Source: Minisyncoccota bacterium
Lineage (GTDB): Bacteria; Patescibacteriota; Minisyncoccia; Phycocordibacterales; UBA9973
Length of the DNA: 64,000 nucleotides
Reading direction: 5' to 3'
Assembly: GCA_041659205.1 (NCBI GenBank)
Contig: JBAZYS010000001.1
Span: 54,090-118,089, forward strand
Shown here: piece after piece, positions 2,719-4,830 of the stretch
Position numbering within the stretch: position 1 is the first letter of the stretch
Layout: each line of letters opens with the position of its first letter
Made by a program: the position numbers and the translations under genes
The notes under the pieces: model-generated
The model's database searches: none
Seen by the model: only the letters and a program-made list of their open reading frames with translations
What the model was told of the DNA's origin: nothing

Positions 2719-4830
2719 ATGGAAAAAATTGAGGCGCAAAAAAGAATAAAGAAATTGCGAAGTGAAATCGCACGATTAAGAGATGCATATCATACAGAAG
2801 ATGCACCTGATGTCACAGATGACGTATATGATTCTTTGAACAGGGAACTTAGAGAACTTGTAAAAAAGTATCCTGAATTTGAAGATTTAAATGCTCCTGA
2901 AAATAGAGTAGGTGGAAAAGCCCTTGCTAAATTTGTAAAAGTTGAACATAAAAATCGAATGCTTTCATTAAACGATGCTTTCAGTGAGGAGGAATTATTT
3001 GATTGGGAAAAAAGGATTATGAAACTTTTGCCCGCAAAGACAAAATTTGATTATTTTTGTGAAGTGAAGTTTGATGGTTTGGCTGTGTCACTAATTTATG
3101 AAAAGGGTATTTTAATGCGTGGAGCAACAAGGGGAGATGGTTTTATTGGCGAAGACATTACCGAGAACTTAAAAACTATTCATTCTATTCCTTTATCTTT
3201 ACCCGAACCCTTTCCAGAATATTTAGAAGTGAGGGGAGAGGCTGTTATGTCTAAAAAGACATTTGAAAAGTTGAATTTAAATAATAAAAAAGAAGGCAAG
3301 ACGCCTTTTGCAAATACGAGAAATGCTGCTGCTGGAAGCTTGCGTCAATTGGACCCTAAACTTTCTGCAGAAAGAAAATTGGATTTTTTTGCATACGACA
3401 TAGCTTCCTCAGATGCTTTTACTCAGGATCTCCTGCTGCGCAACGTCGACCATTCGCAAAAGCATGCAGAGGAAGCTACTCACTCTAGTAAACACAAGTA
3501 TCTAAAAAGTTTAGGTTTCAGAGTAGATGAGAATGAGGCAATTTGTAAAAATTTAAATGAGGTTATAAGTTTTATTAGAAAATTTGAAAAAATAAGACCT
3601 GATTTTCCTTATGGTACTGATGGAGTCGTGATATCTGTCGATGATTTAAAAAATCAGGATATTTTAGGTGTTGTCGGTAAAGCTCCACGTTATATGGCTG
3701 CTTTTAAATATCCGGCTGAGAGGGCGACCACAATAGTCAAAGATGTAAAAGTAAATGTTGGGCGCACGGGGGTGCTTACCCCACTAGCTTTTTTTGAGCC
3801 GACGCTTGTCGCAGGTTCTAGGGTGTCAAAAGCGACTCTTCACAATATGGATCAAATAGAGAGATTGGATTTAAGAATAGGAGACACTGTTGTCATAGAA
3901 AAAGCTGGGGATGTAATTCCAAAGGTTGTAGAAGTTTTAGTACGTATGCGTACAGGGAAAGAAAAGAAATTTAAAATGCCAGAAGTTTGTCCTGTGTGTG
4001 GTGCAAAAGTAGAAAAAAAGAATTCTGGCGGGAAAAGGACAGTCCTTAAGAGAGTTTCCCAAAGGACTGTCCTTAAAGAGCCAGAATTTTCTGTCGCATA
4101 TTATTGTTCTAATCCAAAATGTTCTGCAAAAAATGAAAGGTATTTAGAACACTTTGTGTCTATCTTTGGAATTTATGAATTAGGTCCTAAAATTTTGCGA
4201 CGTTTTAAAGACGAAGGTTTGATAACTGATGCAGCTGATATTTTTACTTTAGAAAAAGAAGACATAGCTCCTCTTGAACGTTTCGGTGAAAAGTCAGCTG
4301 ATAATATAATTAATGAAATAGAAAAGAAGAAATATATAAGCCTTTCACATTTTCTTTGGGCTCTTGGGATCCTACATGTGGGGGAGGAGACAGCTCGAGA
4401 CTTAGCGATACATTTTGGTACATTAGAAAAACTTCTTTTTTCCGCGAGGCAAGATTTAGCGGAGATAGATAGTATTGAAAATATCGGGCCCGCGGTCTCA
4501 AAGAGCGTCAGTGCTTTTTTAAAAGATAAAAATAATTTGTCTTTTATAAAAAAATTAGAGGAAAATGGAGTGGTTATAAAACAGGAAGAAAAGAAAAAAG
4601 CAGGAAAATTTACAGGATTTAATTTTGTTCTTACGGGAACTTTATCCTCAATGTCACGAGAAATAGCTAAAGAAAAGGTACTTGCTTTTGGGGGGAAGGT
4701 GGTTAGTTCTGTGTCAAAGAACACTTCTTACGTTGTGGCGGGGGAGGAAGCTGGTTCTAAGCTGGCAAATGCTCTTAAATTAGGCGTAAAAGTATTAAGT
4801 GAGAAAGATTTTTTAAATATGCTAGGATAG
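2719..4830 (+). CDS. ligA: NAD-dependent DNA ligase LigA
   Basis: The adenylation-domain region, a CPVCG...C zinc finger, HhH motifs ([14 protein letters not shown]) and a C-terminal BRCT ([17 protein letters not shown]) are present. I chose the ATG at 2719 ([17 protein letters not shown]) over the upstream extension, which overlaps the pilX-like gene. Confidence 0.93.
3423..3457. repeat. GC-rich ~35-nt repeat element, copy 1 of 3, inside ligA
   Basis: tcaggatctcctgctgcgcaacgtcgaccattcgc is near-identical to 62161-62195 (1 mismatch in the first 29 nt) and to 42272-42306 (about 80%). Its GC content is far above the surrounding gene. Confidence 0.8.
4035..4074. repeat. 13-bp perfect inverted repeat (aaggacagtcctt / aaggactgtcctt) inside the ligA zinc-finger region
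   Basis: The two arms are exact reverse complements separated by 14 nt. They encode the duplicated peptide RTVLK...RTVLK within an about 20-aa extension of the C-x2-C...C zinc-finger spacing. Confidence 0.6.

Follow-up and report, generated by a model that had tools for sequence, protein, structure and literature searches.

A GC-rich hairpin element inserted in frame in housekeeping genes of Paceibacterota, with likeness to Rickettsia palindromic elements

The summary of Ogata et al. 2000 in PMC10969869 describes Rickettsia palindromic elements (RPEs) as palindromes that sit in frame in unrelated housekeeping genes and fall into several families, and it gives their mechanism as unknown. [quoted passage not shown] Here we describe element A, a GC-rich hairpin with three copies, in ligA, trmD and tgt, within a 64,000-nucleotide stretch (the window, always meant at its full length) of contig JBAZYS010000001.1 from a Minisyncoccota bacterium. 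The hairpin covaries between copies, occupies unrelated host genes in different frames and orientations, and is patchily present among close orthologues. We regard it as probably a small, non-autonomous mobile DNA element of RPE- or MITE-like character that is translated within host proteins. A first-pass annotation of the window, made from the letters alone, knew of no description of such behaviour in this kind of bacterium; our search of open-access papers and bioRxiv likewise found no literature linking RPE- or MITE-like elements to Patescibacteria. Overall, the phenomenon is not new in principle and appears to be undescribed in this large lineage.

Architecture and strand asymmetry of element A

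A 26-nt core, GGATCTCCTGCTNNGCAANNTCGACC, is common to ligA, trmD and tgt of the window, the host open reading frames (ORFs) being assigned to LigA, TrmD and Tgt by Pfam. The first-pass annotation had reported a 35-mer at 3423-3457 in ligA that recurs in tgt at 62161-62195, with one mismatch over the first 29 nt, and more divergently in trmD. The tgt recurrence was borne out, with 2 mismatches over all 35 positions. The divergent similarity in trmD also held (7/35 mismatches), but its coordinates, given as 42272-42306, had to be moved one base rightward to the true register of 42273-42307. Zero matches at three or fewer mismatches were obtained in 100 dinucleotide shuffles of the window, and chance recurrence of the repeat is therefore not expected. 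Two further claims agree with our data: a G+C content far above the AT-rich background (~58-60% in the core versus 35.8% for the window), and the use of two sense frames, with translations reading QDLLLRNVD in ligA and tgt and SGSPAMQTRP (annotated as GSPAMQTRPL) in trmD.

The 35-mer is not, however, the repeat unit, which is a hairpin about twice that length. Inverted repeats, distinct in each copy, border the core on both sides. Element A consists of a conserved, GC-rich apical domain of 36 nt on a stem of 15-25 bp that varies between copies, ~65-85 nt in all. On the better-folding strand the apical domain reads 5'-GAAUGGUCGACGUUGCGNAGCAGGAGAUCCUGAG-3' and contains the helices GGUC/GAUC and UUGC/GCAG together with internal loops; the variable base N of the core is located in the terminal triloop. 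A covariance model was built from an alignment of 17 copies, drawn from the window and related contigs, and was run on the window with filters off. It recovered exactly three copies, at 70-87 bits, the next-best score being 16.6 bits, and neither this search nor regular expressions found further members of A, or of the sister types C and D described below, in the window beyond the known copies. Each of the three folds better on the minus strand. The ligA copy (3399-3480, apical domain 3422-3457, 79.4 bits; host gene on the plus strand) reaches -38.1 kcal/mol (z -4.55) there versus -27.9 on the plus strand. The trmD copy (42250-42328, main stem 42257-42321, apical domain 42272-42307, 70.8 bits), which carries four changes from the consensus core, gives -30.1 kcal/mol (z -4.72) versus -13.5 (z -0.47), and the tgt copy (62143-62211, apical domain 62160-62195, 87.1 bits) -30.5 kcal/mol (z -5.23) versus -23.4.

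RNAalifold analysis of the 17-copy alignment revealed 23 pairs, 17 of which show compensatory changes on both sides. The outer stem accounts for 15 of these, all of its pairs having compensatory double changes; the remaining two lie in the GGUC/GAUC helix and stem from a decayed copy. The apical helices GGUC/GAUC and UUGC/GCAG are otherwise invariant, and in that decayed copy, from relative L019, GGUC/GAUC has become AAUU/AAUU with pairing kept. Stem sequence is common to the ligA copy and a copy in pheT, and between related tgt copies, whose flanks are identical, the differences come as runs of five compensatory pairs in a row. Conservation at the level of nucleotides rather than peptide, as the first-pass annotation had proposed, thus fits a palindromic DNA that is read in different frames and once antisense. 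Among the older insertions the hairpin exceeds the net insertion (82 versus 45 nt in ligA, 65-79 versus 57 in trmD, 93 versus 69 in relative L049), which would be compatible with stems growing outward into flanking sequence. Copying of the stems from the target was considered as well, the relevant observations being the stem sequence common to ligA and pheT and the whole-hairpin inserts in tgt described below. No Rfam 15 family fell on element A, with best E-values of 1.2-2.6 even at permissive thresholds, and two tRNAs alone reached the gathering score in the Rfam scan of the window; a phage collection gave no match to the element. Judged by sequence only, the core may bear some likeness to box C/D, K-turn or anti-Shine-Dalgarno motifs.

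The two strands of the hairpin are not equivalent. The GAAUGGUC strand, complementary to that reading GGATC..., folds ~10 kcal/mol better in 17 of 18 copies, and relative to the host gene this better-folding strand is antisense at nine sites, sense at two and in a spacer at one. Wobble pairs were counted from transition mismatches after the 3' arm of every copy had been reverse-complemented and aligned to the 5' arm, a procedure that presupposes neither strand. There were 24 on the GAAUGGUC strand versus 2 on the other, or 17 versus 2 when one copy per site was considered (two-sided binomial p ~7e-4). In ligA of relative L049 both wobbles again fall on the GAAUGGUC strand, which is there the sense strand. 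It is thus the element, rather than its host gene, that the asymmetry tracks. Selection to weaken an mRNA hairpin was rejected as its source on the same observation, the well-paired strand being sense in this gene. Mutational bias was also rejected: at third codon positions the window has G>C and T>A on the plus strand, in genes of both orientations, a skew that predicts the opposite. Wobble pairing kept almost solely on the GAAUGGUC strand suggests a single-stranded form of that strand, which would have to fold.

Distribution among relatives and fit to host proteins

A pattern scan of one genome per species located the core at nine places in six low-GC assemblies of the Candidate Phyla Radiation (CPR), plus two actinobacterial matches judged to be chance. 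A metagenome scan added few true copies, most of its matches being chance occurrences in high-GC genomes that encode DLLLGN(V/I/L)D with the same codons. For both sets the judgement rests on the absence of flanking inverted repeats, the covariance model not having been run on them. The identical core occurs in ligA, trmD, tgt, pheT, murC, uvrC and uvrA and, outside genes, in the spacer between a thioredoxin-like gene and rpsT, so that the search beyond the window recommended by the first-pass annotation did yield further copies, in seven housekeeping genes and one spacer of related genomes. In tgt of L019 a decayed sense copy is followed directly by an intact antisense copy. Taken together, the copies use two frames in the sense direction and one in antisense, never with a stop codon, and the core is identical at every specified base in genomes whose proteins are ~20% diverged. 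A wide distribution across CPR classes was considered and rejected: TrmD of L001, L004 and L006, although these are labelled Saccharibacteria, is 82% identical to that of the window, and we therefore treat the hosts as a single group of related Paceibacterota-like genomes.

Within this group the element is patchy. Among the 120 closest TrmD orthologues (72-100% identity), element A is present in 10 and absent from 110; 53 have the modal short loop, typically KAFSKIKIKDKKKTKIILF, and 47 carry at least eight extra residues of any type at the insert loop. Besides A, this loop hosts at least four other insert types, three of which (C, D and E) were examined as DNA. Types C and D are hairpins of A-like build with a different core and the borders tcaGG.TC...GACCattc, type D scoring 31 bits against the covariance model of A, and type E is a short GC palindrome. 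The core itself decays within the trmD clade, where peptide variants include SGFPVTQRQP. At the corresponding site in LigA (site 1), three of the 120 closest orthologues have element A and one a decayed A, ~116 lack it, and 42 have some insert of at least 8 aa; the insert in L049 ligA is D-like but oppositely oriented, scoring 32 bits when the sense strand is searched. For a second LigA site, in the zinc-finger loop, 89 of the 120 orthologues could be scored, and roughly half of these have inserts, 10-55 aa in length. Overall, 35-40% of the close orthologues of TrmD and LigA harbour other hairpin families in the same loops, and element A is absent from most orthologues at 73-80% identity. The pattern that the first-pass annotation named as fatal to an inserted element, the same peptide at the same position in orthologues, is thus not what we see, most close orthologues being without it.

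Two further proteins bear on the relation between stem and core. At site 2 of LigA from P0126, the peptides encoded by the stem of element A (TFVQ...SQKHTGS) enclose another core, and UvrA of L003 (L003/L018 uvrA) contains a further insert-like segment, KANFSRFTLKGSDTQKNLLSRNLKG. Together they hint that cores are exchangeable within a common stem frame.

The tgt insert, annotated as a larger insert of about 58 aa, has that size but is a composite of two unrelated families side by side. Directly 3' of the A hairpin lies element B copy 1 (B1; 62213-62329, plus strand, 117 nt, 39 aa; -45 kcal/mol, z -6.0), and a second copy in the opposite orientation, B2, follows ~400 nt downstream (62723-62830, minus strand, 108 nt, 36 aa; -54.4 kcal/mol, z -6.1), in the part of Tgt that separates the zinc-ligand cysteines from the histidine region. 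B1 and 62728-62821 form an inverted repeat, 76% complementary, with 79% identity in alignment. Comparison of four related tgt genes, the window included, orders these gains. Element A is present in all four, decayed in one. B1 is found in the window only, L009, L011/L023 and L019 showing an empty site with GAT joined to CCG; B2 is shared by the window and L009 and absent from L011/L023 and L019; antisense A occurs in L019 only. B1 and antisense A have one point of entry in common, the junction directly 3' of the A hairpin, and for B1, B2 and antisense A alike the inserted segment is the whole hairpin with both arms. Sister elements have thus been gained recently at the same spots. Elsewhere in Tgt, a GC-rich extra segment of 6 aa, RSDGGI (61750-61790), is present in the window and L009 only, and residues 108-138, unmatched in Z. 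mobilis TGT, are common to all four relatives.

A different family with the same behaviour, element F, occupies the LigA zinc-finger loop at 4019-4092. It is a nested perfect palindrome in which AAGGACAGTCCTT...AAGGACTGTCCTT lies inside GAATTCTGGC.../...GCCAGAATT, with folding energies of -40.6/-40.9 kcal/mol (z -5.2/-5.3), and it stretches the 27-position Pfam ZBD profile over residues 424-470. CCTGCC..GGCAGG is another small palindrome family, 18-20 nt long and partly intragenic: one copy is inside nusB (23134-23151), nested in a longer hairpin, and sister copies are inside thrS (20971-20988) and just after rpsP (41093-41112), these genes having been identified by Pfam.

Alignment of LigA, TrmD and Tgt to orthologues and solved structures provided the insert boundaries along with the patchy presence described above. 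Relative to E. coli LigA (2owo), the window protein is longer by 15 aa at the A site and by 20 aa at the element F site; TrmD exceeds H. influenzae TrmD by 19 aa, and Tgt exceeds Z. mobilis TGT by 58 aa and, at B2, by 36 aa. The insert sizes first annotated therefore stand for trmD and tgt, whereas in ligA the ~20 aa shrink to 15. Inserts coincide with gaps between conserved blocks of the solved TrmD, Tgt and LigA structures. TrmD, the only host protein modelled, gave an AlphaFold2 model of mean pLDDT (predicted local distance difference test) 68.9, in which the insert lengthens helix 63-80 and continues into a loop at residues 81-99 (pLDDT <50) that is followed by strand 100-111. A surface-loop location, which the first-pass annotation had proposed to test, is thus in agreement with the low-confidence loop of the TrmD model and, for LigA and Tgt, with the gaps in the structure alignments. 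Conserved domains continue downstream of the inserts according to Pfam and the solved structures, Tgt of the window being split into four Pfam stretches. Furthermore, all independent insertions (A at seven genes; antisense A; B1, B2, C, D, D-like, E and F) are a multiple of three bases long and free of stops, as selection on a translated insert would produce and as precise removal would not require. We infer that the copies of element A are translated as 15-25 extra residues of the host proteins.

Origin and spread of the element

Several of these properties would also suit a structured nucleic-acid element that the host keeps for a function of its own, such as an mRNA binding or processing site, an antisense small RNA, or an uptake or recombination site. 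Covariation is strong, with pairing kept even in the copy whose core has decayed; the core is identical at all specified bases despite ~20% protein divergence; and wobble polarity is fixed. The window also encodes an RNase III (24056-24751), for which long perfect sense-strand mRNA hairpins, for example that of L049 ligA, would be potential substrates. Yet the better-folding strand is antisense, sense and in a spacer at different sites, a spread that no one role at the transcript level can accommodate. For each host gene the majority of orthologues lack the element, and its core decays within the trmD clade. No Rfam family matches it, and three copies in 64 kb are far too few for an uptake or Chi-like signal. 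A host function is accordingly unlikely. We think it quite unlikely, too, that copies spread as whole alleles by homologous recombination after natural transformation, with same-site copies arising from allele exchange or gene conversion. Such exchange would account for the blocks of compensatory differences between tgt copies with identical flanks and for hot-spot loops that hold different families in sister lineages, and the pilin-like genes of the window are compatible with competence, to which such genes have been linked in CPR bacteria. But the same core in seven non-homologous genes and a spacer, in both orientations, is beyond the reach of recombination, which redistributes existing insertions only.

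Three other explanations fare worse. If the segments were removed after transcription, like introns, or skipped by the ribosome as bypass elements, a GC-rich hairpin in AT-rich coding sequence would be familiar from mitochondrial bypass elements, and CPR bacteria are known for intervening sequences in their rRNA. Against this very improbable alternative, more than 12 independent insertions in families A-F are each a multiple of three and stop-free, for which chance would give ~(1/3)^12 for length alone; the segments (65-117 nt) are too short for introns, carry no intron-like motifs and have no Rfam match. For each of ligA, trmD and tgt, the peptide and its site recur in the closest relatives, which could suggest ancient, lineage-specific protein loops whose nucleotide similarity is secondary or accidental. 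This idea is hardly credible and is refuted by frame differences and patchy distribution: two sense frames and one antisense frame yield unrelated peptides, the segment is missing from most orthologues at 73-80% identity, and the similarity is that of a palindrome at the DNA level for which a chance match is not expected. As for an assembly or sequencing artefact, such as an adaptor or chimera, odd composition is all that speaks for it. It is refuted by recurrence across independent assemblies from different projects (NCBI metagenome-assembled genomes, ENA third-party assemblies and JGI metagenomes) at orthologous sites, with divergence and with the frame kept, and we give it almost no credence.

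We therefore favour a mobile DNA element. The core proposal of the first-pass annotation, a DNA-level repeat inserted in frame in the manner of RPEs, is supported by palindromy, by the several frames, by the seven genes and one spacer, and by absence from most orthologues. Element A would have inserted at many genomic places in one group of Paceibacterota, and the visible copies would be the survivors, namely those that are a multiple of three bases long, stop-free and placed in tolerant surface loops of housekeeping proteins. It is likely non-autonomous and served by a trans-acting enzyme encoded elsewhere, a structure-specific one for which the conserved apical domain would be the recognition site. 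Movement would proceed via a single-stranded form of the GAAUGGUC strand, as DNA or, less likely, as RNA. By analogy with IS200/IS605 elements (IS, insertion sequence) or with REPs and their REP-associated tyrosine transposases (RAYTs), we tentatively suggest a single-stranded DNA intermediate of fixed polarity that is recognised via the apical domain. Insertion may favour the foot of existing hairpins or AT-rich loop regions; we rate a preference for hairpin feet or for these loops as a reasonable possibility just short of an even chance, and survivorship in tolerant loops could produce the same pattern. Replication template switching, which homogenises inverted-repeat arms (PMC8604942, PMC7202029), and/or re-homing might keep the arms complementary and perhaps extend them into the flanks. 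That arm complementarity arises in this way rather than by point-wise selection is plausible without being the better bet.

Several observations weigh against a mobile element. For B1, B2 and antisense A, the three insertions whose empty sites are known, neither a target-site duplication nor a conserved target motif is readable. The stems vary from copy to copy, which the terminal inverted repeats of classical MITEs do not. In a Pfam scan of 43 of the roughly 50 long window ORFs, all 43 being at least 100 aa, no mobilising gene was detected, whether transposase, integrase, reverse transcriptase or HUH/RAYT-like; about eight long ORFs, with the two longest (42967-46155 and 46174-49785) among them, lay outside this set. 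Copy number is low: a transposition burst is not demonstrated, because there are three copies in the 64-kb window and few exact-core matches (1-3 in the genome scan) per related assembly. Block compensatory differences between some orthologous copies would fit other routes just as well, either selection in situ for a function in the host or the exchange of alleles by recombination.

Elements A, C, D and perhaps B may share a plan of T-run / GG.TC, GC-rich core and GACC / A-run. It is a doubtful extension that they constitute a superfamily with a single-stranded intermediate of fixed polarity, an enzyme other than the known transposases, targeting to hairpin feet and stems that template switching rebuilds, or extends from the flanks. 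Were this reading true, transposition would have a further, new mode, and much of the variation in protein length among CPR bacteria would stem from it, many essential proteins having their surface loops remodelled rapidly and continually. If element A itself is mobile, selfish DNA inside protein-coding genes would reach from Rickettsia to the Candidate Phyla Radiation, a group that takes in much of the diversity of bacteria and is noted for its minimal genomes. Such DNA would not be marginal there, since 35-40% of close TrmD/LigA orthologues have a hairpin insert in the same loop. The inserts would inflate and scramble the marker alignments used for CPR phylogeny, break domain models and serve as strain-level markers, and the wobble polarity, covarying stems and insertions clustered at old hairpin feet would be clues to mechanism that are relevant to RPEs too.

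The window contains other unusual features. Between a KH-domain gene and trmD, 41560-42035 is a 476-nt GC-rich, strongly structured non-coding stretch (z ~-5.6) where relative L045 has a spacer of only ~50 nt; nothing in it reached Rfam gathering scores, permissive matches (best E ~0.05) being far below. An RNA gene of a new kind would be one possible reading of this stretch, a further inserted element another. The 3' end of the tRNA at 4841-4925 (TCTCTCCGCCTCCGCC) is directly repeated ~170 nt downstream, with a very stable fold (-44.7 kcal/mol) in between, and the whole region (4841-5101) looks like the scar of an integrated element. Four consecutive paralogous genes at 31593-40442 encode large secreted proteins that have a signal-peptide region and a peptidoglycan-binding domain in common and contain a 300-nt repeat that is 61-78% identical. 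Finally, 54-nt repeats, 61-80% identical and spaced 126-138 nt apart, occur at 63533-63976 in the last, incomplete ORF of the window.

Comparison with known systems

GC-rich mobile hairpins within the coding sequence of a very AT-rich genome are known from the GC clusters and 'byp' elements of yeast mitochondria. These are organellar, and because ribosomes pass over byps no frame has to be kept, whereas copies of element A are in frame and stop-free. Quasipalindrome template switching (PMC7202029, PMC8604942) explains arm homogenisation, multi-base compensatory changes and possible spacer inversion in the absence of selection, but it is a mutational process rather than an element and cannot give an identical 26-36-nt core in unrelated genes.

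Classical MITEs such as Correia, ERIC and Nezha resemble element A in being short and hairpin-forming and in encoding no transposase. Such MITEs are marked by terminal inverted repeats that are conserved, by duplication of the target site and by a cognate IS. In element A the arms are the variable part, no clear duplication is visible at B1, B2 and antisense A, and the scan of 43 ORFs of the window met no transposase domain. REP/REPIN-RAYT systems and IS200/IS605 elements offer a different parallel, since their imperfect hairpins act as single-stranded DNA of one polarity, tolerate G-T pairs and leave no target duplication. By this analogy, an IS200/IS605- or RAYT-type mechanism would best fit the strand asymmetry. 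Element A is mostly intragenic, unlike REPs, lacks a conserved head tetranucleotide at the stem base and has its conserved part at the apex, and no RAYT or TnpA gene was found among the scanned window ORFs. Membership in REP/RAYT systems is not supported, and the mode of action alone would be borrowed.

RPEs differ from element A in size, their ~100-150 bp being about twice its 65-85 nt, and in host, which here belongs to the Patescibacteria (Candidatus Paceibacterota) and not to Rickettsia. Element A conserves its apical domain while its stem varies and covaries, it has a low copy number per family with many families in the same hot-spot loops, and its wobble pairs show a marked strand asymmetry. 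Membership in the RPE family is not supported: element A is set apart by size, host and conservation pattern. What it has in common with RPEs is a palindromic build, in-frame insertion in unrelated housekeeping genes with the ORF kept open, apparent translation as an extra peptide, positions compatible with the protein fold, several families per genome, and a small, AT-rich host genome.

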